From the NCBI GenBank assembly GCA_963752475.1, contig CAVVYR010000035.1, positions 1 to 11,740 of the forward strand: a stretch of DNA of 11,740 bases, written 5' to 3'. Both the position numbers and the translations under genes were made by a program. This DNA is from an uncultured Chloroflexia bacterium (lineage in GTDB: Bacteria; Chloroflexota; Limnocylindria; Limnocylindrales; CSP1-4). The stretch's first letter is position 1. Every line of letters begins with the position of its first letter. Below are positions 1 through 11,740 of this stretch, piece by piece. The notes below the pieces were generated by a model. That model was not told the DNA's origin. It saw only the letters and a list, made by a program, of their open reading frames with translations, and did no database searches.

Positions 1-437
1 GAGCGAGGCGCCAGGCATCGACGCGAACCTTTCGGCGTCGGACCGATCGGTCGCAGCACCGAATCCTATGAACTCGTCCAGTGGCTGGTACAGCCGACTT
101 GGTGCATGCACACTTCCAGGTCCGGACCGATGCTGCAGCCTTCGAACGTGGCTCCGTACCGAACCTCGCCGCTCGCCTGAGGCCCATCGGCGTGCACCCG
201 AGCTCCCCGCCCACACGGAACTCGTCCAGCGCCTCGGGTCTCACCAGCATCAGCCGGATGGTCCCAACGTGCGAGTACGCCCCCGCTCCTGCGTCCACCA
301 GCTCGGATCAACCACGCCTCGGGTGCTCCCCACGTAGACGGTGTCCGCATCCACACATCGTTCCCGGGATCAAGGCGCTAGGCTCGTGACTCGACGCAGC
401 CGGCCACACGCCACGATTGGACGAAGCGGAGGATTGG

Positions 438-1222
438 ATGTCAGAGCAGGGAATCGGCGGCCCACGACTGCAGTACCGGTCGCCGCAGGATGGATCGCGG
501 CTCCAGAGGACTACCCCGATGCGCCGATCAGCCTTGTGCTGGAGCGGAGCACCGCGGGGGCCGAACTCTTCGGAGTAGCCGTCGCGATCGGTGGCGACAT
601 CCCGCTTCACTGTCACTCCATGATGGAGTTCCAGTACGTCGTTAGCGGGAACGGGCTGGCGCTGAACGCGGACGGCGCAGAGATTCCGATCTCGGCGGGC
701 GGCACCGTCATCAGCCCGGCAGGGCCGGCAGGCGCGCATGGATTCCGGAACCTCGGGCGCCTGCCTCTGACGCTGTTGTGTCTGTATCCATCGCCGGGGG
801 GCGCCACGCCCGATCGCAGCCCCTTCGATCCAAGGACGAACCCCGGTGAGGGACCGCGGACAACGTATCGTTCTCCGCACGAGCTGCGACCTTCCCGCAC
901 CGATGATGCGACGCGTGTCGCCCGCATCCTCGACGAATTGGATCCAGGCGCGGAACTCCATGCGCTTGTCAGGGCGGTCACGTCCCCGACCGTCCGCCAT
1001 CATCACTCTGTCTTCGAGCTCCAGTACGTGGTGGCAGGTGTAGGTGTCGTCGCCGATGCTGACGGCCGCGAGACCGAGATCGGGCCAGGTGGCGTGGTTG
1101 CGTGTCCTGCCGGGCCCTCGGGCGCTCATGCGTTCCGGCCAAGCGGCTCGATGCCCTTGCAGCTGCTCTGCGTGTCTCCGTCCCCGAAGGGCACGGCTCC
1201 GGACACGGTTCTCGACGACTAG
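438..1222 (+). CDS. Tandem (bi-)cupin domain protein; one apparent frameshift near 492-494
   Basis: Two similar halves, each with cupin motif 1 (HCHSMMEFQYVVSG / HHHSVFELQYVVAG) and motif 2 (PAGPAGAHGF / PAGPSGAHAF). GGAGG at 428-432 precedes ATG 438. The peptide from that start (MSEQGIGGPRLQYRSPQD) matches the start of repeat 2 (GEGPRTTYRSPHE) but lies in a different frame from the 341..1222 ORF, implying one missing base. Confidence 0.8.
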
Positions 1223-1236
1223 CAGTCCACGCGCGG

Positions 1237-2280
1237 CTAACTGCAGAGCGCCCTGGCTGCATCGCCGTCGGTGATGAGGGTGTTGACCCAGCCGCCGAGC
1301 AGCGCCGCGCGGATAGCCTCGGTCTTCTCGATGCCTCCGGCGACAGCGATGACCTCGGGCACCGTCCGCAGCTGGGCACCGCTGATCGCCAAGCGTCGCT
1401 CGTCGACCGGGGAGCGGATGGAGCGGCCGCGACGATCGATGAGTGAGGCCCCGATGTCCGCTACCACCCCGAGGCTGGCGAGGTGCTCCCGGAGCTCAGG
1501 CTCGAATGACTGCGCCATCATCGATTCCATCGGGTCCCAGCTCCCGATCGCGACGACTGCGACCGTGAGACGCTCGAACTGCCCCAGGCTCCGCGCCACC
1601 TCGGGGTCACGCATAAGGCTACGAGCCGTCGACGCATCCGGCGCGATGAGGGGGGCGTGGAAGGCGTAGACCGGGCCACCCGAGCGCGCTGCAACGCGCC
1701 GTACGACGTCGTGTGAATTGAGGGAGATGCCGACGCCGGACACGCCCCCGATGACTTGTACGACCGTGCATCCGGGCAGCGGCGGCAGCGCGGCGGCCAT
1801 CTGGTCGAGCGTGCGACCCCAGGCGATCCCGACGATCGAGTCCTCATCCACCGTTTCCGCCAAGACTGAGCTGGCCACGGCACCGAGCTCGCGACGTTTG
1901 AAGTCGGGAGGTACGCCCCGCGCTGCCAGCACCACCGCCTGATGAAGGCCGAACTGTCGTCGTACGGATTCGCTGAGTTCCAGGTCGAGCGGCGACTCCG
2001 GCAAGGAGACCTCGATACGCACAAGCCCGCGGCTGATTGCCTCGTCGATGAGGCGAGCGACCTTGAAGCGGGACAGCCCCAGGTCCTTGGCAATCGCCGA
2101 CTTGGTCTCGCCACCCCTGTAGTGGCGCTCCACGACCTGGGCGAGTTGCACGAGATGCAGGGGGCCATCCGCCGGGTGAGGGCCACGTCGTGTTCTGGTC
2201 GATTCGGGCACTGGTGGTCGCCTGCTGCGACCGGCTACGGCCGGAGTGTCGCGTTGCGGCGAGCCGCTGGTTGAGCGCAT
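1237..2280 (-). CDS. SorC/DeoR/LsrR-family sugar-binding transcriptional regulator (start uncertain: 2280 or 2301)
   Basis: N-terminal HTH HYRGGETKSAIAKDLGLSRFKVARLIDEAISRGLVRIEV, then sugar-binding domain motifs GIAWGRTL, VQVIGG, APLI, VVAIGS, VAGGIEKTEAIRAALLGGWVNTLITD. Divergent from the sugar operon. Confidence 0.93.
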   Translation of the reverse strand: MRSTSGSPQRDTPAVAGRSRRPPVPESTRTRRGPHPADGPLHLVQLAQVVERHYRGGETKSAIAKDLGLSRFKVARLIDEAISRGLVRIEVSLPESPLDLELSESVRRQFGLHQAVVLAARGVPPDFKRRELGAVASSVLAETVDEDSIVGIAWGRTLDQMAAALPPLPGCTVVQVIGGVSGVGISLNSHDVVRRVAARSGGPVYAFHAPLIAPDASTARSLMRDPEVARSLGQFERLTVAVVAIGSWDPMESMMAQSFEPELREHLASLGVVADIGASLIDRRGRSIRSPVDERRLAISGAQLRTVPEVIAVAGGIEKTEAIRAALLGGWVNTLITDGDAARALCS

Positions 2281-2326
2281 CCGATACCCGCGTTGACTCA
2301 TCGTATCCAGAGGCCTACCATCGCCA

Positions 2327-2355
2327 TATGAGCGAAAGTTTCGCTCGTATGAGCA
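2327..2355. promoter_or_regulatory. Candidate operator for the divergent regulator
   Basis: Perfect inverted repeat GAGCGAAA-G-TTTCGCTC (2330-2346) overlaps the near-palindrome GCTCGTATGAGC (2343-2354). TATGAGC occurs at 2327 and 2348, 21 bp apart. It lies in the divergent intergenic region. Confidence 0.6.
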
Positions 2356-2360
2356 GAGTA

Positions 2361-2387
2361 CCATGTCGTGTCCACGGCACGACATGG
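2361..2387. repeat. Perfect 10-bp inverted repeat (stem-loop) upstream of the operon
   Basis: CCATGTCGTG-tccacgg-CACGACATGG, with no following U-tract. Confidence 0.7.
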
Positions 2388-2473
2388 CGGAGAGATGGGC
2401 TGGGTGGATCGACTGGGCCAAGTTGGAGCCGGCCCGTCAGGGCGAGTTGCGGGGGATGAGGAGGAGCGGGGAG

Positions 2474-3076
2474 ATGAGGGCTGTGACCGTCCTTGAGCGG
2501 GCACATTCCGTGCTCGAGAACGACCGGCGTGCCATCGCCTCGGCAGCCGCCTCGCTCGGGCAGGGTTTCGTGGACGCCGTGTCGATTCTGCTCGAGGTGC
2601 AGGGCAAGACGTTGGTGACGGGCATGGGAACATCTGGCGCGGCCGCCCGACGCATCGCGCACCTGCTTTCGTGTGGCGGTACGCCTGCGGTATTCGTCAG
2701 CGCGGCCGACGGGTTGCACGGCGGCCTCGGCATCGTCGCGAAAGGTGATGTCCTCATCTCGGTCTCGAAGGGTGGCGAGAGCCAGGAGTTGAACGACTTC
2801 ACAGGTCTGGCCCGTGCCCGTGGCGCTCGCGTGATCGTGATGACCGAAGAGGCCAGTTCCAGCCTCGCCGCACACGGTGACTGCGTCATCGAGATCCACA
2901 CGCCTCCCGACACCGATCCAGGACGCCGGCTGGCCATGGGTAGCACGATCGCCGCGTCTGCAGTAGGTGACGCCCTGGCGTTGATCCTCATGCAGGAACG
3001 AGGCTATGAGTGGGAGCGGTTCGAGATGACGCACCCGGGCGGTGCTGTCGGCAAAGCCATCGACGCGCGCGGATGA
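2474..3076 (+). CDS. SIS-domain sugar-phosphate isomerase, KpsF/GutQ/KdsD-like, without CBS domains
   Basis: Motifs LVTGMGTSG, GTPAVFV, HGGLG, ISVSKGGES, VGDALAL and HPGGAVG align with the KdsD/GutQ SIS domain. The protein ends right after HPGG. A purine-rich RBS (GAGGAG...GGAG) precedes ATG 2474. Confidence 0.88.
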   Translation: MRAVTVLERAHSVLENDRRAIASAAASLGQGFVDAVSILLEVQGKTLVTGMGTSGAAARRIAHLLSCGGTPAVFVSAADGLHGGLGIVAKGDVLISVSKGGESQELNDFTGLARARGARVIVMTEEASSSLAAHGDCVIEIHTPPDTDPGRRLAMGSTIAASAVGDALALILMQERGYEWERFEMTHPGGAVGKAIDARG

Positions 3077-3113
3077 CTCGCAGCTCAAGCGCCAAAGCGC
3101 GGACCTTGGTCAG

Positions 3114-4637
3114 ATGACGGGCACAGACGGGGCGACACCTCGTCTCCGGGTCCGCGGACTATCCAAGCGCTTCGAGGCCGTTCGTGCCTTGGTGACCGCG
3201 GAGCTCGAGGTCAAGCCCGGGTCGATCCACGCGCTGGTCGGGGAGAACGGCGCGGGCAAGTCGACCCTCGTCAAAATCATCACCGGACTTGAGGTCGCCG
3301 ACGAGGGCTCGCTGCTCCTCGATGGACGCGAGGTCCACTTCACCTCACCCATGGACGCGAGGTCGGCTGGCGTCACGGCCGTCTACCAGGACCCCAAGCT
3401 GTTCCCCCATCTCGACGTCGCCGAGAACCTGCTCATGGGCATCCAGCCCACCAACGTCCGCGGCCTGCGCGTCGACCGCCGAGCGATGTACCGCCAGGCA
3501 AACGAACTGTTGGCCCGGATCGGCGTGAACATCGACACGCACACCCTGGCCGTCGGACTCTCGGCCGCGGATCTGCTCTTCGTCGAGATCGCGCGGGCGC
3601 TATCCGCCGACGTGCGCCTGCTCATCCTCGACGAGCCGACCGCAGCGCTCACGCCCGCAGAGGCCGACCAGCTCTTCACCGTCGTCCGCGACCTGAGGGA
3701 CGATGGGGCTTCCATCATGCTCATCACCCATCGACTCGAGGAGCTCGACGGGCTTGCCGATGCCATCACCGTATTGCGTGACGGGACGGATGTTGCCTCG
3801 ATGCCGATGGCCGAGACGGAGCGCGAGGAGATCGTCCAGCTGATGGTCGGCAGGACCCTGGCGGCCGAGGGCAGGCGCACCGCCGGAGTTGTGGGCGAGG
3901 AGCGGCTCAGCGTGGCCAATCTCACCAGCGTCGGGACGTTCGACTCGGTGTCGTTCTCGGTGCGCGAGGGCGAGATCGTCTGCATGGCCGGGCTCGTGGG
4001 CTCAGGCCGCTCTGAGGTCGCCCAGGCGGTATTCGGCATCGAGAGCTACGACTCGGGTTCGGTCCGAGTCGACGGCGAGGCCGTTGACGTCAAGGACCCC
4101 ATGCAGATGGTGAGCCTCGGCGTGGCCTACGTCCCGGAGGATCGTGACGCGCAGGGGCTCGTGACCTCGTTCTCCATCACCGACAACGTGGCTTTGCCGC
4201 TGCTCCGGGCCCTCTCGCATCTGGGCCTCCGTTCTCGCGGACGTGAACGAGGCATCAGCGAGCAGTACGCGGATGAGATGGCCATCAAGGCACCGACCGT
4301 TGACACGCCGACCTCCTCTCTCTCAGGCGGCAATCGCCAGAAGACCCTCTTGGCCAAGTGGCTAGCTACGAAGCCGCGGGTATTGATCCTCGACGAACCC
4401 ACCCACGGCATCGATGTCGGATCGAAGGCGGAGGTCCACGCCATCATCCGGGACCTGGCCGCGCAGGGTATGGCCATCCTCATGATCTCCTCCGACCTGC
4501 CCGAGGTCCTACTGCTCAGCGACCGCATCCTGGTCATCGCCGATGGGCGTCTCGTAGCGGAACTCCCCGGATCAGAGGCGACCCAGGAAGCGGTGATGAG
4601 CGCGGCAGCCAGCAACGCCAGCGAGCGGACAGCATGA
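3114..4637 (+). CDS. Sugar ABC transporter ATP-binding protein (two-domain CUT2 type; RhaT/LsrA/RbsA-like)
   Basis: Walker A GENGAGKST, Q-loop VYQDPKLFPHLDVAEN, LLILDEPT, ITHRLEE; second domain GLVGSGRSE, YVPEDR, LSGGNRQK, LILDEPTHGIDVGSKAE, ISSDLPE. Start could be 3073 if one indel is present. Confidence 0.95.
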   Translation: MTGTDGATPRLRVRGLSKRFEAVRALVTAELEVKPGSIHALVGENGAGKSTLVKIITGLEVADEGSLLLDGREVHFTSPMDARSAGVTAVYQDPKLFPHLDVAENLLMGIQPTNVRGLRVDRRAMYRQANELLARIGVNIDTHTLAVGLSAADLLFVEIARALSADVRLLILDEPTAALTPAEADQLFTVVRDLRDDGASIMLITHRLEELDGLADAITVLRDGTDVASMPMAETEREEIVQLMVGRTLAAEGRRTAGVVGEERLSVANLTSVGTFDSVSFSVREGEIVCMAGLVGSGRSEVAQAVFGIESYDSGSVRVDGEAVDVKDPMQMVSLGVAYVPEDRDAQGLVTSFSITDNVALPLLRALSHLGLRSRGRERGISEQYADEMAIKAPTVDTPTSSLSGGNRQKTLLAKWLATKPRVLILDEPTHGIDVGSKAEVHAIIRDLAAQGMAILMISSDLPEVLLLSDRILVIADGRLVAELPGSEATQEAVMSAAASNASERTA

Positions 4638-5665
4638 GCTCCGGGGCCACACCGACGACAGAGCCAGCATTCCAGCCCACGAGGCGTGCCGAGCTCGCAC
4701 TGCGTGTTCGGGTCTTGGGCGTCTCCGGCTTCATGGTCCTGCTCGCCATCGTCTTCACGCTCCTGACCACGCGGTTCCTGACCGTGGACAACCTACTGGT
4801 GGTCGCCTTCAACGCCGCCATCCTGGCCATCGTGGCGACCGCCATCAGCGTCGTGCTGCTGACGCGCAACCTGGACCTCTCGGTGGGGTCGGTCATGGGC
4901 TTGGCCGGCTACCTGTGGGCTGACATCGCCTCGCAGGCGCCGGATGCCGGGCCGCTGCTGCTGTTGGTGCCACTGGCCGTCGGCGCGATCTGCGGCGTCA
5001 TCAATGGCCTGCTCGTGGCTTACGGTGGTCTTCCGTCCATCATCGCCACGCTCGGGACCCTGTCGGTCTATCGAGGCGTGACCTTCATCTATGCAGAGGG
5101 TCAGCAGGTGACCTCGAATGTGATCCCTGGCTGGATGCTCGAGATGGTCGACATCCGCGTGGTGGGGATCCCCGCGCTGGCCATCGTCGCCGTGGTCGTC
5201 GTGCTCACCGTGGCCGCCTTCCTGCGACAGACACCGCTCGGCCGGCAGATCTACGCGGTCGGATCGAGCGCCGAGGCCAGCTTCTTCTACGGGCTCTCGG
5301 TCAAGCACGTGGTGGTCGCGGCGTACGTCATCTCTGGGCTGCTGGCCGGACTCGCCGGCTTCCTCCTCGCTGCCCGTGTCGGCACGGTTTCGGTCGCGTT
5401 GGCCAGCGGCTGGGAGTTGACCGCGCTGTCAGCCGCGGTCATCGGCGGGGTGAGCGTGCTGGGGGGGTCCGGCAGCGTGATCGGAGCCGCGCTCGGGGCC
5501 GTCGTGCTGGCCATGATCGACAACGGGCTCGTTCTCCTGCGGGTACCGGAGTTCTGGCGGATGTTCCTGCAGGGCAGCGCCATCGTGGCAGCCGTCGCGG
5601 CCGACGTCGTCATCGAGAAACGCATCCGCCGCGTGTTCAAGACGCATGGAGACCGCGGCCGATGA
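4634..5665 (+). CDS. Sugar ABC transporter permease (RhaP/LsrC/RbsC-like)
   Basis: Hydrophobic; NLDLSVGS, LPSIIATLGT, GRQIYAVGSS, AAVIGGVSVLGGSGSV, NGLVLL. ATGA overlap with the ATPase stop. Confidence 0.95.
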   Translation: MSSGATPTTEPAFQPTRRAELALRVRVLGVSGFMVLLAIVFTLLTTRFLTVDNLLVVAFNAAILAIVATAISVVLLTRNLDLSVGSVMGLAGYLWADIASQAPDAGPLLLLVPLAVGAICGVINGLLVAYGGLPSIIATLGTLSVYRGVTFIYAEGQQVTSNVIPGWMLEMVDIRVVGIPALAIVAVVVVLTVAAFLRQTPLGRQIYAVGSSAEASFFYGLSVKHVVVAAYVISGLLAGLAGFLLAARVGTVSVALASGWELTALSAAVIGGVSVLGGSGSVIGAALGAVVLAMIDNGLVLLRVPEFWRMFLQGSAIVAAVAADVVIEKRIRRVFKTHGDRGR

Positions 5666-6711
5666 CGGCTCCACGTTCTGCGCAGCCCGCCACCGAGAGC
5701 GCGTCGGCCTCCTCTGCACGTCCCCGAAGGCGTCTTTCGGGACACCGGTGGGAGATGGGGCTGGTGGTGATGCTCGTCGGCTCGGTCATCGTGGCGGCAC
5801 AGCTCTCGCCGTACTACCTGAACCTCGACCAGATCCTGCTGGCGATGCGCCTCACGATGGTCGCCGGCATGCTGGCGCTTGGGCTCATGGTGGTCGTGGT
5901 CCTGGGCGAGATCGACCTCTCACAGGCGGCCATCGTCGCCTTCGGGGCGGTCATCTTCGCTGCCTGCTCCCAGTGGGGCCTTCCGTTCTGGGCCGCTCTT
6001 CCCATCGTCATGGTGTTGTGCATGGTGCTCGGTGCCTTCAACGGCATCCTGGTCGCCTACCTTGGCTTGCCCTCCCTGGCGGTCACCATCGGCACCCTTG
6101 CGGCGTATCGCGGCCTGGCGTTCATCATCGGCGGAGACAAGGGGTACACCGGCTTCGACGACATCTATCTGTGGCTGGGCAGGACGACCAGCCCGATCGC
6201 GCCGGCCATCGTGGTCTTCGGCATCGCCGCCATCGTGCTGACCATCGTCATGGCGCGCTCCAACTTCGGAGCCTACTGCTACACCATCGGGAATAGTCCG
6301 ACAGTGGCGCGGTTCTCAGGCGTCCCGGTGGCCCGAGTGAAGGTGCTGGCCTTCGTGCTCTCCGCAGCACTCGCGGCGCTGGCCGCCTGGATCCTCATTG
6401 GCCAGTTCGGGTCCGCCCGTGGCGACAATGCGGACGGCGTCACGCTCCTCGTCGTCACAGCCGTCGTCCTCGGCGGCGTCGACATCTACGGTGGCCGTGG
6501 GTCGGTTCTCGGTGTTGTCCTCGCTGTGCTCATCCTAGGCACGCTCGGCAACGGTATGGGCCTCGCCAACGTGGCCGGCCCGACGCAGTCTGTCGTCTTC
6601 GGGCTGCTGCTCATCGGCAGCATCCTGCTGCCACGGACCGTTTCCAGCCTCATGTCCACTATCCGTATGCGTAGGTCGGCCACTGACGTGGCCGGCTCCA
6701 CGCGGGCGTAG
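5662..6711 (+). CDS. Sugar ABC transporter permease (RhaQ/LsrD-like)
   Basis: Hydrophobic; GEIDLS, LPSLAVTIGT, YTIGNSPTVARFSGVPV, VVLGGVDIYGGRGSV. ATGA overlap with the first permease. Confidence 0.95.
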   Translation: MTAPRSAQPATESASASSARPRRRLSGHRWEMGLVVMLVGSVIVAAQLSPYYLNLDQILLAMRLTMVAGMLALGLMVVVVLGEIDLSQAAIVAFGAVIFAACSQWGLPFWAALPIVMVLCMVLGAFNGILVAYLGLPSLAVTIGTLAAYRGLAFIIGGDKGYTGFDDIYLWLGRTTSPIAPAIVVFGIAAIVLTIVMARSNFGAYCYTIGNSPTVARFSGVPVARVKVLAFVLSAALAALAAWILIGQFGSARGDNADGVTLLVVTAVVLGGVDIYGGRGSVLGVVLAVLILGTLGNGMGLANVAGPTQSVVFGLLLIGSILLPRTVSSLMSTIRMRRSATDVAGSTRA

Positions 6712-6793
6712 CTGCGATGAGCCCCGAAAGGAGGTGTGGCTGACCGAATCGAACCAACCACGCGACAGCATGGAATCGGAGGACTCCCAAGAG

Positions 6794-7837
6794 ATGAGCA
6801 ACAGTTTCACTCAGAGCAGGAAGGCTCGCCTAGCCACGCTCCTGGTCGCCGTCATGGCCACCACGGCGCTCTCAGCACCAGTCGTAGCCCAGGACGAAGA
6901 GTCGGCCGACAGCTGCTCTGGTCTCCGCATCTTCCACACCGGCAAGTGGACCGGGTTCCCGTACTTCGAATTGGCGCAGGTGGGCGTCGTCGAGGCAGCC
7001 GACGAGCTCGGCGACACCGTGACCTACGGTGGCGCGTCCGAGCCCGACACCCAGGCGCAAGTCCAGACGCTGCAGAACTTCGTGGCGCAGAAGCCCGACG
7101 CCATCGTGCTCGCCGCGATCGATGTGAACGCGGTGGCTCCGGTGCTCGAAGACGCCCGCGCACAAGGCATCAAGATCGTGACCTACGACGCCGATGCCGC
7201 CGTGCAGGCCCGCGATGCCTTTGTCAACCAGCTGAGCTACCGGCAGGCCGCTCAGGTCATGCTCGATGCGGCTCTGGAGAACGCGCCCGAGGGTGGGCAG
7301 ATCGCCTACGTCGCCGCGTCTCCGACGGCGCCCAACCACACGGCTCACATCGAGAACATGAACGACCTCATCGCGACTGACCCTAAGTACAGCGTCTTCG
7401 AGGCCGTGGACACGCAGTACGCGGATGACGACGACGCCAAGAGCTACGACGTCGCCATCAACCTGATGCAGGCACATCCTGATCTGCGCGGCATCATCTC
7501 GTCCTCGGCGGTGAGCGCACCGGCCGGCGCGCGCGCCATCCAGGCCGCGGGTCGCGAGGGCGAGGTCTTCTCCACCGGGTTCGCGCTGCCGAACGCGATC
7601 AAGAGCTATCTCGAGGATGGCTCGCAGGCCGCGTTCGCACTCTGGGACCCGCAGGAGCTCGGCTACGTCGCCGCACAGTTGGCCCATCAACTCGTCTGTG
7701 GCGAGACAGAAGTCGTCGAGGGCGAGACCTTCACCGCTGGCAAGGCTGGCGATTTCACCTACGGCGTCGACGGCGAGGTCGTCTACGGCCGACCGCTGGT
7801 CTTCACCCCCGAGAACATGGACGACTACGACTTCTAG
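6794..7837 (+). CDS. Sugar ABC substrate-binding protein, RhaS/LsrB-like (PBP1 fold), with Sec signal peptide
   Basis: GGAGG at 6778-6782 before ATG 6794. Signal peptide MSNSFTQSRKARLATLLVAVMATTALSAPVVA|QDE. Family motifs K..G.PYF, QVQTLQNFVAQKPDAI, TYDAD...RDAFVNQ, LWDPQELGY and C-terminal FTPENMDDYDF. Confidence 0.93.
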   Translation: MSNSFTQSRKARLATLLVAVMATTALSAPVVAQDEESADSCSGLRIFHTGKWTGFPYFELAQVGVVEAADELGDTVTYGGASEPDTQAQVQTLQNFVAQKPDAIVLAAIDVNAVAPVLEDARAQGIKIVTYDADAAVQARDAFVNQLSYRQAAQVMLDAALENAPEGGQIAYVAASPTAPNHTAHIENMNDLIATDPKYSVFEAVDTQYADDDDAKSYDVAINLMQAHPDLRGIISSSAVSAPAGARAIQAAGREGEVFSTGFALPNAIKSYLEDGSQAAFALWDPQELGYVAAQLAHQLVCGETEVVEGETFTAGKAGDFTYGVDGEVVYGRPLVFTPENMDDYDF

Positions 7838-7870
7838 CCGCTAGACGCAGAGACCCGAGGCGAGGCGACG

Positions 7871-8828
7871 ATGAGACTGAGCATCTTCTTGGACCCCCAG
7901 GAGGGAATGACCTATGCCGCGATGCTGGCCGCCGCGCAAGCGACGGAACGCGGCGGCTTCTACGGGCTGTACCGCTCTGACCATCTCGCCCCGACCTCGG
8001 GGCTCTTCGACCGCAATGCCACCGAGGCGTGGACGACGTTGCGCGGGACTGGCCCGCGAGACATCGAGGATCAGGCTCGGGACGTTGATCACGCCACTGA
8101 CTTTCCGGGAGCCTGCGTTGCTCTCCAAGATGGCCAGCACCGTCGCCGAGATGAGCGGTGGTCGCGTAGAGGTCTCCATCGGGACTGGCTGGAACACCGG
8201 CGAGCACGAGGCGCTGGGACTCGAGTTCGAGTCGTTGGGCGTCCGCTTCGAGCGACTCGAGGAATACGCCAAGGTCCTGATCGGCTTCTGGGGCGACGAG
8301 CGCTATCTCATTCGAGGGCACGTACTACAGCGCCTCGGATATCCTGCCGCGTCCGCTTCCCCGACCGCCGGCCTCGCATCATCATCGGCGGTCACGGCCG
8401 GCGCAAGACCCCGCTGCTCGCAGCGCGCTACGCCGACGAGTACAACATCGACTGGCCATCGCCTGAGCAGTGCAGCGAGCTCTTCGGGCGTCTCGATGGT
8501 GCCTGCGAGCAGGTGGGCCGCGAGCCAGGCTCCATCGAGCGTTCCGTCCTGCTCGGGGTCATCGTCGGGGAGACCGAGGCGGAGGTCCGCCGAGTGGTGC
8601 CTGCAGGCGTGAGCGAGCTCGGTGACAGCGACCCCGACGCATGGCTTGCTGAATGCTCCGGCCTGGAAGGCCGGGACACCTGACGAAATCATCGACTGGC
8701 TCCGTGCTACGAGGCCGTCGGCGTGGAGCACGCCATCCTGATGTACGCACCGTACGGCGACGTGAGCATCATCGACCTGCTGGCTCGGGAGGTGCTCCCG
8801 GCCTTCGGAGGAGGGATCGGAAGGGTGA
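7871..8828 (+). CDS. LLM-class, probably F420-dependent, oxidoreductase (TIGR03560/Rv1855c-like); at least 5 frameshifts as read
   Basis: Pieces across frames: MRLSIFLDPQEGMTY...YRSDH...EAWTTL / AGLARETSRIRLGTLITPLTFR...MSGGRVEVSIGTGW...EH / FEGTYY / PRIIIGGHGRRKTPLLAARYADEYN / GTPDEIIDWL / YEAVGV...DLLAREVLPAF. End inferred from the GTGA overlap at 8825-8828. Confidence 0.85.
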
Positions 8829-10523
8829 GCAGTTCGCCGCGGTTCGCGCTGGGCTTCGACTTCGGGACCGAGTCAGGAAGGGCGGTCCTCTTCGATGTCG
8901 CGAATGGGCGCTTGGTGAGTAGCGCCATCCATCCTTATTCGAACGGCGTCATCGATGAGCGGTTGCCCGCAGTCGGGCCGAACGCTCGGACCCGACTGGG
9001 CGCTGCAGGACCCCGACGACTACCTCGCCGTACTCCGCGGTGCCGGTCGCCGTGGGTCCAGGACGCCGGGGTCGATGCCGTTGACATCATCGGAGTCGGC
9101 ATCGACTTCACCGCCTGCACCATGCTGCCTACGACTGCCGATGGGACGCCGCTGCTGCACGCTCCCGCAATGGCGCGGCGAGCCGAATGCCTGGGTCAAG
9201 CTTTGGAAGCATCACGCCGCGCAGCCCTATGCCGATCAGATCAACAGGGCTGCGGAGACCGCACGTCCGGACTGCTGGCACGCCACGGCGGACGCTACTC
9301 GTCAGAGTGGTTCTGGTCCAAGGTGCTCCAGACCGTGAACGAGGCACCAGAGGTCCACGCGGCGGCCGAGCGCTACATCGAAGCCTGGACTGGATGGTCT
9401 GGCAACTCACCGGCGTGGAACGACGGCTGCCTGTGTGGCGGGCTACAAGGCGCTTGGGATCCGAAGAAGGTTTCCCCGACGAGTTCCTGGCGAGCCTCAC
9501 CCGAGCCTCGAGGGCATCGTCGAACTCGCATGCAGCGGGACCTCGACCCCTCGGCGAGCGAGCCGGCGGGCTCACCGATGAGTGGGCAGCGACACTCGGC
9601 CTGTTGCCCGACACCTCGGTCGCCATCTCGACGCTCGACGCGCACACATCGGTGCCGGCGACGGGCGTCACCGAGCCAGGTCGCATGGTCATGATCATGG
9701 GTACCTCCATCTGCCACCTCGTCATCGGCGAGGAGCGCCACGAGGTCGAGGGCATGTGTGGCGTGATCCAGGGTGGCATCACTCCCGGCACATGGGGCTT
9801 CGAAGCTGGCCAATCCTGTGTCGGCGACCATTTCGCCTGGTTCGTCGAGTCTCAGCTCCGGCAGAGTACGTGGCCGAGGCTGCGGACCGTGGCGTCTCGG
9901 TCAATCGAGTGCTGGAGGAGCGTGCGGCGCGGGATCGCACCTGGCGAGAGCGGTCTACTGGCACTGGACTGGTGGAACGGCAACCGATCGGTGCTGGTCG
10001 ATGCGGATCTGACCGGGCTGATGGTGGGCATGACGCTGCAGACCAAGCCAGAGGAGATGTACCGCGCCCTGATGGAGGCCACCGCATACGGCACGCGCGC
10101 CATCATCGAAGCATTCGAGCGACAGGGCGTGCCGGTCGCACAGTTGGTCGCATGCTGGTGGGCTGCCGGACGAGAGTCCATTGCTCATGCAGATCTTCTC
10201 CGATGTCACCGGCCGCGAGATCTGGGTCGCCCAGTCGCCGCAGACCCCGGCGTTGGGCGCAGCGATGCACGCTGCGGTCGCGGCCGGCAGTGAGCGAGGT
10301 GGGTATCGGGTCCATCGAGGAGGCAGCCGAACGCATGGGCCACCTGCGCGATGCCCCGTATCGCCCGGATGCCGAACGGGCCAGAGTCTACGACCGACTC
10401 TACTCCGAGTACAGGAGCCTCCACGACTATTTCGGTCGGGGTGGCAACGATGTGATGAAGCGCCTCAAGAGCCTCCGATTCGAGAGGTTGCAGGCTCGTG
10501 TCGAAGGAGGAAGAGATGCTTGA
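8825..10523 (+). CDS. araB: Ribulokinase (FGGY family, Bacillus AraB type); about 10 or more frameshifts as read
   Basis: Pieces across frames: [153 protein letters not shown] lies upstream of GTG 8825. Confidence 0.9.
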
Positions 10524-11253
10524 CGCCGTAAGGCAGGAGGTCTGCCAACTCAACCAGGAGCTACCGCGCAATGGCCTTGCGCCGTGGACGGCCGGCAACC
10601 TGAGCGCTCGAGACCCTGAGAGCGGTCTCGTCGTCATCAAGCCGAGCGGTGTCCGATACGAGGCCATGTCTGCCGAGTCCATGGTCGTCCTCGACCTCGA
10701 GGGTGCTGTCGTCGAGGGGCCACTACAGCCATCTGTGGACGCGGCCTCGCACTTGTACGTCTATCGCCATCGACCCGAAGTGCACGGCGTCGTGCATACG
10801 CACTCGCCATATGCGACGGCATTCGCTGCGGTAGGCCAGCCGCTGCCCGTGTACCTGACGGCGATGGCTGATCAGTTCGGTGGGCCCGTGCCCGTGGGGC
10901 GCTACGTGGCGCCGATCGGTGGGGAAGCCATCGGCGCCGAGATCCTGGCCTCTATCGGCGACTCTCCAGCTGTCCTGATGCAGAATCACGGCGTCTTCAC
11001 GATCGGAGCGACTGCCACGGCCGCCCTCCAGGCGGCAGTGATGCTCGAAGAGAACGCGAAGACGATCGCTATCGCGCTAACGATCGGAACTCCGTCGGAG
11101 ATCCCAGCCGAACACGTCGACCGTCAAAGGGAGTTCTATCTGACTCAGTACGGGCAGAAGCGAGGAGGTCCCTCGAAGGTGCTCGATGGCCAGGGCTGTC
11201 CAGTGATTCGGCGAGGCGCCAGGTGTCGACCCGCCCCTTCCACCGAGTCCTAG
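10516..11253 (+). CDS. araD: L-ribulose-5-phosphate 4-epimerase (class II aldolase/adducin family)
   Basis: AAGGAGG RBS at 10504-10510. Motifs [20 protein letters not shown] (Asp as in AraD, not the Glu of FucA), [14 protein letters not shown] and Y..YGQ near the C-terminus. Overlaps the araB stop. Confidence 0.88.
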
Positions 11254-11586
11254 ACGGTCACAGTCGCTGTGGATGACGACCACTTTGAGCACCAGACGGT
11301 CGCAGAGGCACCGTGAGGCGCCTCCACGACGTACCCGACTGATTGGGTCGTCTCGACACAGCCAGACCAGCTGATCGGAGTCCCAGCCGTGGCCACACGG
11401 TGACTGACCCGGTGATTGACCATAGTGGTCGGACAGGCCCGAATCCGTGCTCAGGAAGCCCCCCGAACCCGTCGGCTGTCCTCCGATTGGTCGCGTAGCT
11501 TTGCAGCCGACCAACGGAGCCGCCTCCCATCGACCGGCGAACGAGGTCCCGGTTCGTGCTGCTGTCGGTTGGTATCTGGTCCGTGC

Positions 11587-11595
11587 TGATAGCGT
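11587..11595 (+). promoter_or_regulatory. Possible extended -10 promoter element
   Basis: TG-A-TAGCGT, about 28 nt upstream of ATG 11623. The -35 match is weak. Confidence 0.3.
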
Positions 11596-11622
11596 GGTGT
11601 CCTAGCGACAGGAGACCCATCG

Positions 11623-11740
11623 ATGTGCTCGGACCCCGACAGCCACCCTCCCATCGACCCTGCGGGTCACGGCTCGGCCAACGGTAACGAGATCGGCCTC
11701 ATCGTCGGTGACGGCAACCGCTGCACCGCCTACCAGGCCG
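11623..11740 (+). CDS. 5' end of a probable dienelactone hydrolase family protein (runs off the window)
   Basis: AGGAG at 11610-11614, then an open frame MCSDPDSHPPIDPAGHGSANGNEIGLIVGDGNRCTAYQA. This resembles from memory the MC.D.D..PP...L...DG.RF.AY.A N-terminus of a dienelactone hydrolase subfamily. Not in the ORF track because it is truncated. Confidence 0.55.
   Translation, partial: MCSDPDSHPPIDPAGHGSANGNEIGLIVGDGNRCTAYQA

Follow-up and report, generated by a model that had tools for sequence, protein, structure and literature searches.

Ribulokinase (AraB) and L-ribulose-5-phosphate 4-epimerase (AraD) are textbook enzymes that are normally fed by L-arabinose isomerase (AraA). What, then, would feed them in an operon that encodes both enzymes behind a sugar importer of its own and holds no araA? 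This question is raised by a contig of an uncultured Chloroflexia bacterium, C35, which was analysed over its entire length (11,740 bp, 66% GC) and is called the window here. It belongs to a genome bin (G000) of 38 contigs and 4.25 Mb, with a completeness of 88.8% and a contamination of 5.8%. A first-pass annotation, made from the letters of the window alone, had listed a SIS protein, an ABC ATPase, two permeases, a sugar-binding protein (SBP), a luciferase-like oxidoreductase (LLM), araB and araD as one operon in this order, with a divergent SorC regulator and an adjacent bicupin. Open reading frames (ORFs), Pfam matches and comparison with a related genome, G024, show that this list and order are correct, and that araA and an NAD-type polyol dehydrogenase are indeed missing from the window. 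On balance, we read the locus as a movable, AraA-independent module for C5 compounds, in which SorC-controlled import would supply a route through the LLM, AraB and AraD, and in which the frames of two genes were probably broken by consensus error.

A conserved core of regulator, importer, oxidoreductase, kinase and epimerase

Genes were called from the ORF listing, Pfam and NCBIfam, and by comparison with the intact proteins of G024, a genome of the same genus that served as the intact reference for alignments. The operon and the genes next to it are as follows.

341-1222, plus strand: bicupin with two Cupin_2 domains (Pfam 4.8e-21), conserved part 494-1219
1237-2291, minus strand: SorC/DeoR-type regulator (Pfam Sugar-bind, PF04198, 193.9 bits), start uncertain, as the ORF extends to 2421
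2293-2321, plus strand: promoter-like site TTGACT-17-TACCAT, preceding the operon
2342-2355: putative operator CGCTCGTATGAGCA (CGCTC-N4-GAGCA)
2363-3076, plus strand: single-domain SIS protein (Pfam SIS 7.2e-20), conserved part from ~2477
3042-4637, plus strand: ABC ATPase of the CUT2 sugar type with two ABC_tran domains (Pfam 2.8e-51)
4634-5665, plus strand: ABC permease 1, best NCBIfam match LsrC, below cut-off
5662-6711, plus strand: ABC permease 2, best NCBIfam match LsrD, below cut-off
6794-7837, plus strand: periplasmic or extracytoplasmic SBP (Pfam Peripla_BP_4, 198.7 bits)
7871-8819, plus strand: LLM (Bac_luciferase), split over two frames
8825-10523, plus strand: ribulokinase gene araB, its frame interrupted many times
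10516-11253, plus strand: L-ribulose-5-phosphate 4-epimerase gene araD (Pfam Aldolase_II, 172 bits), conserved to ~11133, with a variable tail

Because the same order and operator recur in other genomes, the arrangement is not due to chance. All ten genes are intact in G024, which is 83% identical to the window at the nucleotide level, and G042 has the same order without the SIS gene and with several frame breaks. Nakamurella lactea DSM 19367 (G041) and a second Nakamurellaceae genome (G846) carry the regulator divergent from the full series SIS-ATPase-permease-permease-SBP-LLM-araB-araD, and no bicupin. Among metagenome loci, L054 (56% GC) holds ATPase-permease-permease-SBP-LLM-araB-araD, its first gene immediately preceded by the operator, L052 holds SBP-LLM-araB-araD, and L056 holds SIS-LLM-araB. 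Across Chloroflexota and Actinomycetota, araB lies directly 3' of the LLM gene in nine of the 12 loci of the LLM clade whose downstream side is visible. Where they could be seen, araD was present in 8/8 loci and the regulator in 6/6. The SIS gene was found in five of eight informative cassettes (missing from G042, L054 and L055), and the bicupin in four of seven loci, all of one genus, and in none of the Nakamurella or L055 loci. What stays constant is a core made up of a SorC-type regulator, an ABC importer of the RhaS/Lsr-like kind, a TIGR03560-type LLM, a ribulokinase and an L-ribulose-5-phosphate 4-epimerase, and the bicupin travels with the module only within the genus of the window. The cassette proposed in the first-pass annotation thus recurs in its LLM-araB linkage, its order and its operator, whereas the SIS protein and the bicupin, which had been counted among the pathway enzymes, are not obligatory: the former is absent from three of eight cassettes, and the latter outlives the operon in another genome, G010.

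A variant of the cassette is seen in L055, to which the partial locus L012 also belongs. Here, a Gfo/Idh/MocA oxidoreductase gene is divergent from an LLM-ribulokinase pair, and the regulator is divergent from permease-permease-SBP-ATPase, followed by a 2-hydroxyacid dehydrogenase and a canonical-type AraD (NF006047). Two kinds of gene are added here (L055 8813-9859 and 18812-19840, L012 7469-8539): that of the Gfo/Idh/MocA oxidoreductase, which both loci have at 78% identity, and one of the D-2-hydroxyacid dehydrogenase family, seen in L055. They share the cassette operator, which suggests extra redox steps in this actinobacterial-looking variant. The use of the other AraD subtype by L055, in the same regulon, is an argument that selection maintains the epimerase function.

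In a phylogenetic tree of LLMs, the cassette clade had a support of 100/100. Members from outside cassettes nest within its Chloroflexi branch, so the cassette context looks ancestral. The three exceptions to the LLM-araB linkage are G043 (L014), G009 (L022, where only 1.5 kb per side of the LLM is visible) and L053, with LLMs that are 66-72% identical. Upstream of the sister-group LLM, L014 (8730-12034) and L062 (2011-5131) hold an ABC1 kinase, a second LLM and a cupin-containing protein; downstream of it, L014 and L053 (944-2972) hold a URO-D-like protein (and a Zn-dependent alcohol dehydrogenase).

Occurrence of the module is sporadic, with two carriers among 61 Nakamurellaceae genomes and only one among 401 genomes of the Nakamurella class (N. 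lactea itself), the latter in a search that scored only five candidates per genome and may have missed some. In the class of the window, the LLM profile had 104 matches at E <= 1e-95 among 401 genomes, a tally that includes the unpublished genomes G526 and G757, which enter into nothing else reported here; the 30 loci fetched, all but G009, were paralogues of 41-46% identity with no cassette neighbours. Literature searches for LLM or F420 with ribulokinase, epimerase and pentitols, and for ribulokinase with SorC, found no published description of the cassette, and in the literature on TIGR03560 and Rv1855c we found no paper linking the family to parts of the cassette.

Two observations were made at the ends of cassettes. 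About 3 kb downstream of the G024 cassette (L010 16161-18434) lie a second SorC-like frame, an LLM-like fragment and few long ORFs, with two further copies of CGCTC-N4-GAGC at 16356 and 16450; this region may be a degenerate second copy of the cassette. In Nakamurella, the cassette ends with a divergent gene of the ribulose-phosphate-3-epimerase family that overlaps the araD stop codon (L013 13349-14014 and L066 6962-7594, 55% identical to each other), a hint that L-xylulose-5-phosphate may be an intermediate there.

A shared putative operator

The regulator fits the SorC family through its C-terminal sugar-binding domain (PF04198), with a weak match for the N-terminal helix-turn-helix. Its nearest NCBIfam models, DeoR (Bacillus type) and LsrR, both score below cut-off. 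The 4.25-Mb genome contains the strict motif CGCTC-N4-GAGCA just once. Nine loci share the operator, upstream of the cassette, including L010, L011, L012, L013, L055, L056 and L066. Both Nakamurella genomes have several copies, L055 has three, one per divergent intergenic region, and the operator of L054 has a 3-nucleotide spacer. Presumably, the SorC-type regulator binds this operator. TTGACT-17-TACCAT is the sole sigma-70-like match in the window, weak evidence when taken alone as 1.2 matches are expected; its two hexamers are also kept in G024 and G042. A SorC-type repressor would bind the palindromic operator just downstream of the TTGACT/TACCAT promoter. Judging from its family, repression would probably be relieved by a phosphosugar intermediate, giving a single transcript from the SIS gene through araD.

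A predicted ribulokinase and epimerase that would work without AraA

The AraB of G024 scores above the cut-offs of two ribulokinase models (NF003154, 708.9 versus 428; TIGR01234, 692.2 versus 583) and matches the Bacillus halodurans ribulokinase (PDB 3qdk) at 8e-211. In that alignment it keeps A96, W126, K208, D274 and E329 (5/5, 3qdk numbering), which we take to be the L-ribulose contact residues. A96 of ribulokinase is also named in PMC12307932. AraD belongs to subtype NF005123 (G024 286.3 and L054 300, versus a cut-off of 251), and the AraD of the window is 90% identical to that of G024 over residues 1-206. Aligned to Escherichia coli AraD (1jdi), it keeps N28, K42, S44, G45, D76, H95, H97, T116, D120 and H171. 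Of these, D76, H95, H97 and H171 are presumably metal ligands, and N28, K42, S44 and G45 presumably form the phosphate site. The alignment covers residues up to 194, and Tyr229, which we take to be the C-terminal catalytic residue of the E. coli enzyme, belongs to the terminal part that could not be aligned. From family membership and conserved active-site residues, AraB would phosphorylate a ketopentose at C5, and AraD would turn L-ribulose-5-phosphate into D-xylulose-5-phosphate for the pentose-phosphate pathway.

The rest of the genome does hold araA, but not under the cassette operator. Contig C19 of G000 has a full canonical locus with araD (NF006047), araA (747 bits), araB (758 bits), a LacI-type regulator and an ABC transporter, and no form of the operator was found near it. 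G042 and G846 also have araA elsewhere, and G024 has a second, canonical-type ribulokinase. In N. lactea, araA was not found by PF02610 or NF002795, and the only ribulokinase above cut-off is that of the cassette, which indicates that the cassette works without AraA. A table in the N. lactea genome report lists L-arabinose and L-rhamnose as carbon sources (PMC5217420). As araA was not found, the cassette or an oxidative pathway must account for this reported use of L-arabinose.

The idea that a different substrate is imported and converted by the LLM, SIS and/or cupin enzymes is partly supported, through the LLM-araB linkage, the separate operator, a signature of the SBP described below and N. 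lactea without araA; it was too broad in that SIS and cupin are not obligatory. The imported compound would be a C5 carbohydrate other than the L-arabinose of the canonical locus. Pentitols (ribitol, L-arabitol or xylitol) and rare pentoses or ketopentoses are the most likely candidates. Our best guess is a pentitol or rare pentose that is converted to L-ribulose.

The luciferase-like oxidoreductase as candidate entry enzyme

The LLM is a compact protein of 315 amino acids whose best NCBIfam matches are F420-type LLM subfamilies. In G024, it scores 237.3 bits on TIGR03560 ("F420 Rv1855c" type; cut-off 231.4), a borderline value. Among structures, the highest TM-score was to the F420-dependent glucose-6-phosphate dehydrogenase 5lxe (0.84/0.87). 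G000 has cofD and cofE (C29:146900-149371), two genes for assembly of the F420 tail; G024, G042 and N. lactea likewise have cofD. By hydride transfer that is probably deazaflavin-dependent, the LLM would make the ketopentose on which AraB acts. We tentatively propose, as a possibility that we would not yet call probable, that it is an F420-dependent sugar or polyol oxidoreductase that replaces L-arabinose isomerase as the entry enzyme to AraB and AraD; in N. lactea, this may be what permits growth on L-arabinose in spite of the missing araA. The label "F420-type" given in the first-pass annotation was too firm, since the profile score is borderline and the fold search does not separate F420 enzymes from those that use FMN.

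Binding protein, SIS protein and bicupin

The nearest PDB entries to the SBP are the rhamnose-binding proteins 5bq3 and 4kvf (2e-62), followed by LsrB. It scores below the cut-offs of both corresponding models, RhaS (TIGR02637, 258.2 versus 342.25) and LsrB (175 versus 384). Six residues of LsrB, K35, D116, D166, Q167, P220 and A222, are presumably its contacts to autoinducer-2 (AI-2). In the register given by 3t95, three of the six are kept (K35, D116 and A222), and the others are replaced (D166 to N, Q167 to H and P220 to S). At positions homologous to LsrB contacts, the SBP also differs from 5bq3 and 4kvf (Q to H, P to S and T to A). Membership of LsrB was rejected for the three lost contacts and the low profile score, and membership of RhaS for its score and the differing pocket positions. 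The signatures PKWT[GT]FPYF and P/A-N-H are conserved in 8/8 cassette SBPs. This conservation across phyla points to a ligand that they share and that is distinct. By sequence, the SBP is a distinct subfamily between RhaS and LsrB, and its binding-site signature differs from those of both.

The SIS protein is of the KpsF/GutQ N-terminal domain type without CBS domains, and its nearest PDB entry is 3fxa. It scores below the cut-offs of GutQ (134 versus 481), KdsD (128 versus 505) and KpsF (118 versus 204). Lys59 in GxGKSG is an active-site residue of arabinose-5-phosphate isomerases; the Ala that chain 2xhz has at this position is consistent with the K59A crystal form. All five cassette proteins and 3fxa have Thr instead, within a motif G[ML]GTSG (5/5). 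H88 and E111 are kept, and E152 is replaced by Asp. A canonical arabinose-5-phosphate isomerase was thus rejected on account of the missing CBS pair, the scores under cut-off and the Thr in place of Lys59. The "atypical SIS isomerase" of the first-pass annotation is indeed atypical, and probably not a canonical arabinose-5-phosphate isomerase. A PDB search with the bicupin gave weak cupin matches only and no link to cupin sugar isomerases. In the proposed pathway, both the SIS protein and the bicupin would be accessory.

An accessory insertion with filled and empty versions

The ends of the module and its flank are placed in the window as follows.

1-55: left island junction and left copy of an imperfect direct repeat, after the helicase-nuclease stop codon (contig C17)
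11209-11262: right copy of the imperfect direct repeat; homology of the module to G024 and G010 stops just before it, at ~11200
11534-11740: right flank, common to contigs C33 and C18 (90% and 88% identity)

Other contigs of the bin show both states of this site. Near the end of contig C17 lies a helicase-nuclease gene, and after its stop codon comes the sequence that also forms window 1-2278 (C17:6229-8467). On contigs C33 and C18, the stop codon of the helicase-nuclease gene is joined directly to the sequence of window 11534-11740, followed by a dienelactone-hydrolase gene. With filled (C17 with C35) and empty (C33 and C18) versions side by side, the bin must be a mixture of three haplotypes or more. 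Both junctions carry a short imperfect repeat, CCGGC(C)GA[GA]CGAGG (C17:6190-6270, C33:7760-7840 and C18:5200-5290). Within the window, the imperfect direct repeat is 83% identical between 3-31 and 11211-11239, and extends to ~55 nucleotides when 1-55 and 11209-11262 are aligned.

Homology to G024 spans window 376 to 11201, and both G024 and G010 hold the module between unrelated flanks. In G010 (L004, G010:C3:151519-155737), a clean ~9-kb deletion has removed the operon and left a relic, in which the 137 codons at the 3' end of the regulator gene run straight into codon 37 of araD; the bicupin is still intact. The module of ~10.8 kb (about 376-11200) is an accessory catabolic insertion/deletion polymorphism between the helicase-nuclease and hydrolase genes. 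No integrase or transposase was found within the window.

Neighbouring genes of the module overlap or are spaced 5-82 nucleotides apart; the bicupin gene converges on that of the regulator, which is divergent from the operon. Protein identity to G024 is 86% for the bicupin (from 494 on), 84% for the regulator and 87% for the ATPase, whose nearest NCBIfam models are AraG, XylG and LsrA, each below cut-off. Rfam and tRNA scans of the window gave no match, and no intrinsic terminator was detected in it.

Weighing the alternatives

Several observations speak against the reading proposed above. The place of the LLM in the pathway is deduced from linkage only, and the LLMs of G043 and L053 share another conserved context, beside a URO-D-like gene; with close relatives in another context, the LLM is not exclusive to an AraB/AraD pathway. 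Its membership in TIGR03560 is borderline, with the LLM of L055 (222.7) under the cut-off of 231.4, and Foldseek searches with the LLM model (pLDDT 88) list the FMN monooxygenases RutA, SfnG and MsuD beside F420 enzymes. In draft genomes, and with an initial search filter that may miss genes, we found no cofG, cofH or fused FbiC for FO synthase in G000, no cofH or FbiC in G024 or N. lactea, no cofH in G042, and likewise none across the 31 genomes of the genus (including G001-G024 and G824-G829). An F420-dependent pathway in genomes with cofD but no detectable FO synthase would rely on scavenged deazaflavin, and these genomes may indeed scavenge the deazaflavin FO. The assignment of the substrate is also a weak point: N. 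lactea is reported to grow on L-arabinose (PMC5217420), so the substrate could be L-arabinose. Finally, the operon is deleted in G010, frame breaks are also seen in the G042 copy, and the window has 21 indels packed into 2.3 kb, a clustering that uniform sequencing error would not give and that leaves real recent decay possible.

The alternative that best survives is that the cassette of this genome is a decaying pseudogene cluster, with truly frameshifted LLM and araB genes and a dead pathway. The first-pass annotation had missed that neither gene is an open frame here; indels break both relative to G024. Pfam matches them only as fragments in differing frames, tblastn with the intact G024 AraB returns pieces spread over three frames, and the araB pieces score 272 and 111 bits on the ribulokinase model. 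A nucleotide alignment to G024 has 21 indel events of one or two bases at 8042-10308 (nine insertions and 12 deletions). Those in or at the LLM gene are at 8042, 8302, 8367, 8650, 8705 and 8813, and araB has 15, from 8970 to 10308, of which eight are one-base deletions inside 9272-9541. The preceding 5.6 kb (2469-8041), with the transporter genes, have only four such events. A single one of these is a coding frameshift; it lies at 4565, towards the 3' end of the ATPase gene. araD is essentially intact, its sole indel (11131) being at the end of the conserved domain. This concentration in two adjacent genes would fit decay, as would the deletion in G010, the lack of the module in the C33 and C18 haplotypes and the broken copy in G042.

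The substitutions speak for intact selection. Read in the register of G024, the LLM is 84% and araB 88% identical, and codon position 3 takes 63% and 68% of their mismatches, respectively, compared to 58-73% in intact neighbours. Synonymous codon changes outnumber nonsynonymous ones (86:50 in the LLM, 175:66 in araB), and there are no nonsense substitutions across the 869 codons of the two genes, with 0 stops in the 557 codons of araB. Old pseudogene decay was rejected on these signatures. Eight one-base deletions within 270 bp are unlike natural decay, and the assembly itself has deletion-rich contig ends: C17:6229-8467 differs from window 1-2278 by 147 mismatches and, relative to C35, by 42 deletions and 3 insertions, so that the C17 tail looks like a poor-quality, deletion-rich copy. 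Codon-phase switches reach up to 2.4 per kb on small contigs versus 0.86-1.06 on long ones. As the substitution patterns still show purifying selection, we consider it likely that the frames were broken by errors of the consensus where a small contig is poorly supported, and we regard a decaying cluster as possible but doubtful. The case calls for caution: in a mixed bin, frame errors on a small contig concealed the condition of two key genes.

A second alternative retains an active cassette and makes it an AraA-independent route for L-arabinose, in which the LLM, possibly with the SIS protein, replaces the isomerase, for instance by reduction to L-arabitol and its re-oxidation, redox-neutral overall, before AraB and AraD act in their usual roles. 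The case for it is N. lactea, a listed L-arabinose user (PMC5217420) with no araA found by PF02610 or NF002795 and a single above-cut-off ribulokinase, in the cassette. That organism could instead use the oxidative L-arabinose pathway, however, and G000, G042 and G846 hold araA besides the cassette, in G000 within a canonical locus that has its own transporter and LacI-type regulator. Moreover, G024 has a second, canonical-type ribulokinase, and the SBP is nearest to rhamnose-binding proteins rather than to binders of the AraF type. We think this route improbable.

We give no better chance to the scavenging of a free ketopentose (L- or D-ribulose, or L-xylulose), with an importer that feeds AraB directly and an LLM engaged in a side reaction. 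All presumed L-ribulose contacts of AraB are conserved, as such a function would have it. The Rbl locus offers a precedent with the same CUT2 ABC transporter, FGGY ribulokinase and dispensable KpsF-like isomerase (PMC12307932). On the other hand, no gene accompanies araB as constantly as that of the LLM does (9/12 loci), which would be unexpected for a bystander, and the SBP is distant from binders of the 9i1m type (E 3.6e-21 versus 2e-62 for RhaS types). Nor, to our knowledge, is free L-ribulose an abundant natural nutrient.

Less likely still is that the LLM is a monooxygenase dependent on FMNH2 and O2, similar to SsuD, RutA or sulfoquinovose monooxygenase, that acts ahead of the kinase and frees a modified pentose of a substituent. 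RutA, SfnG and MsuD are among the top Foldseek and PDB sequence matches, and the failure to find FO synthase in cassette-bearing genomes would agree with a flavin enzyme. Yet no cassette has a flavin reductase gene, and the compact size, the top TM-score to 5lxe, the F420-type subfamilies among the best NCBIfam matches and the cofD and cofE genes named above point the other way.

An lsr-like system for AI-2 (DPD) or a similar C5 dicarbonyl, with the LLM giving a 1-deoxy-pentulose and kinase and epimerase giving 1-deoxy-D-xylulose-5-phosphate, is very unlikely despite a layout that mirrors lsrR and lsrACDB plus an FGGY kinase, permeases that match LsrC and LsrD best and second-best matches of SBP and regulator to LsrB and LsrR, because every Lsr model scores below cut-off, the kinase is a high-scoring ribulokinase (LsrK 81 versus 528 bits), only half of the presumed LsrB contacts are kept and LsrF and LsrG are absent from the cassette.

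Relation to known loci

The canonical araBAD genes of E. coli, Bacillus subtilis and C19 share with the cassette a ribulokinase followed by an L-ribulose-5-phosphate 4-epimerase, leading to D-xylulose-5-phosphate. The cassette differs by the lack of AraA, by a regulator of the SorC type rather than AraC, AraR or LacI, by an importer of its own with a RhaS/Lsr-like SBP, and by the LLM inserted before araB; its AraD is of the NF005123 subtype, compared to NF006047 on C19.

Loci for pentitols and other polyols include Klebsiella rbt/dal, Sinorhizobium ery-rbt-lal with the SorC-type regulator EryD, and E. coli gut with GutQ, a paralogue of arabinose-5-phosphate isomerase. The logic of import, dehydrogenase, FGGY kinase and pentose-phosphate pathway is common to these loci and the cassette, as are SorC-type control and a SIS gene resembling that isomerase in the operon. 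Their dehydrogenases are NAD-dependent enzymes of the SDR or MDR families, where the cassette has the LLM, and they proceed via D-ribulose or D-xylulose and need no AraD, unlike the cassette. In E. coli yiaK-S and ula (LyxK, SgbU/UlaE, SgbE/UlaF), a paralogue of AraD converts L-ribulose-5-phosphate made from L-xylulose-5-phosphate by a 3-epimerase. Nakamurella cassettes resemble these systems in the 3-epimerase-type gene that follows araD, which is of the Rpe family and not of the UlaE/SgbU fold. The cassette lacks the 3-keto-L-gulonate-6-phosphate decarboxylase and reductase, and has another type of transporter.

With the lsr operon (lsrRK/lsrACDBFG), the cassette shares a divergent SorC-family regulator, the order ATPase-permease-permease-SBP and an FGGY kinase; it differs by the absence of LsrF and LsrG, by the AraB type of its kinase and by the scores of all Lsr models, which are below cut-off.

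The Rbl locus for D-ribulose in Citrobacter rodentium (PMC12307932) comprises a CUT2 ABC transporter, a D-ribulokinase (RblK, only 28% identical to AraB) and a KpsF-like isomerase, deletion of which caused no growth defect on D-ribulose. The two systems have in common an operon with these parts (CUT2 transporter, FGGY-type ribulokinase, single-domain SIS protein like KpsF), and the dispensable isomerase of Rbl matches the variable presence of the SIS gene in cassettes. Rbl is without AraD, an LLM and a cognate regulator, unlike the cassette, whose SIS protein also differs from that of Rbl by the Thr at the Lys59 position.

Implications

A conserved, self-regulated module in two phyla couples AraB and AraD to an uncharacterised LLM and to an SBP with a pocket signature of its own. 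An intact copy exists in culture, in the type strain N. lactea DSM 19367, which makes the proposal directly testable. Should the LLM prove to be the feeding enzyme, this would give a function to a branch of the large and almost wholly uncharacterised TIGR03560 family and a new cofactor class to sugar catabolism, and it would identify a C5 nutrient of soil Chloroflexota and rock-dwelling Nakamurella. If true, an F420-dependent LLM would be the first known F420 step in pentose or pentitol catabolism.

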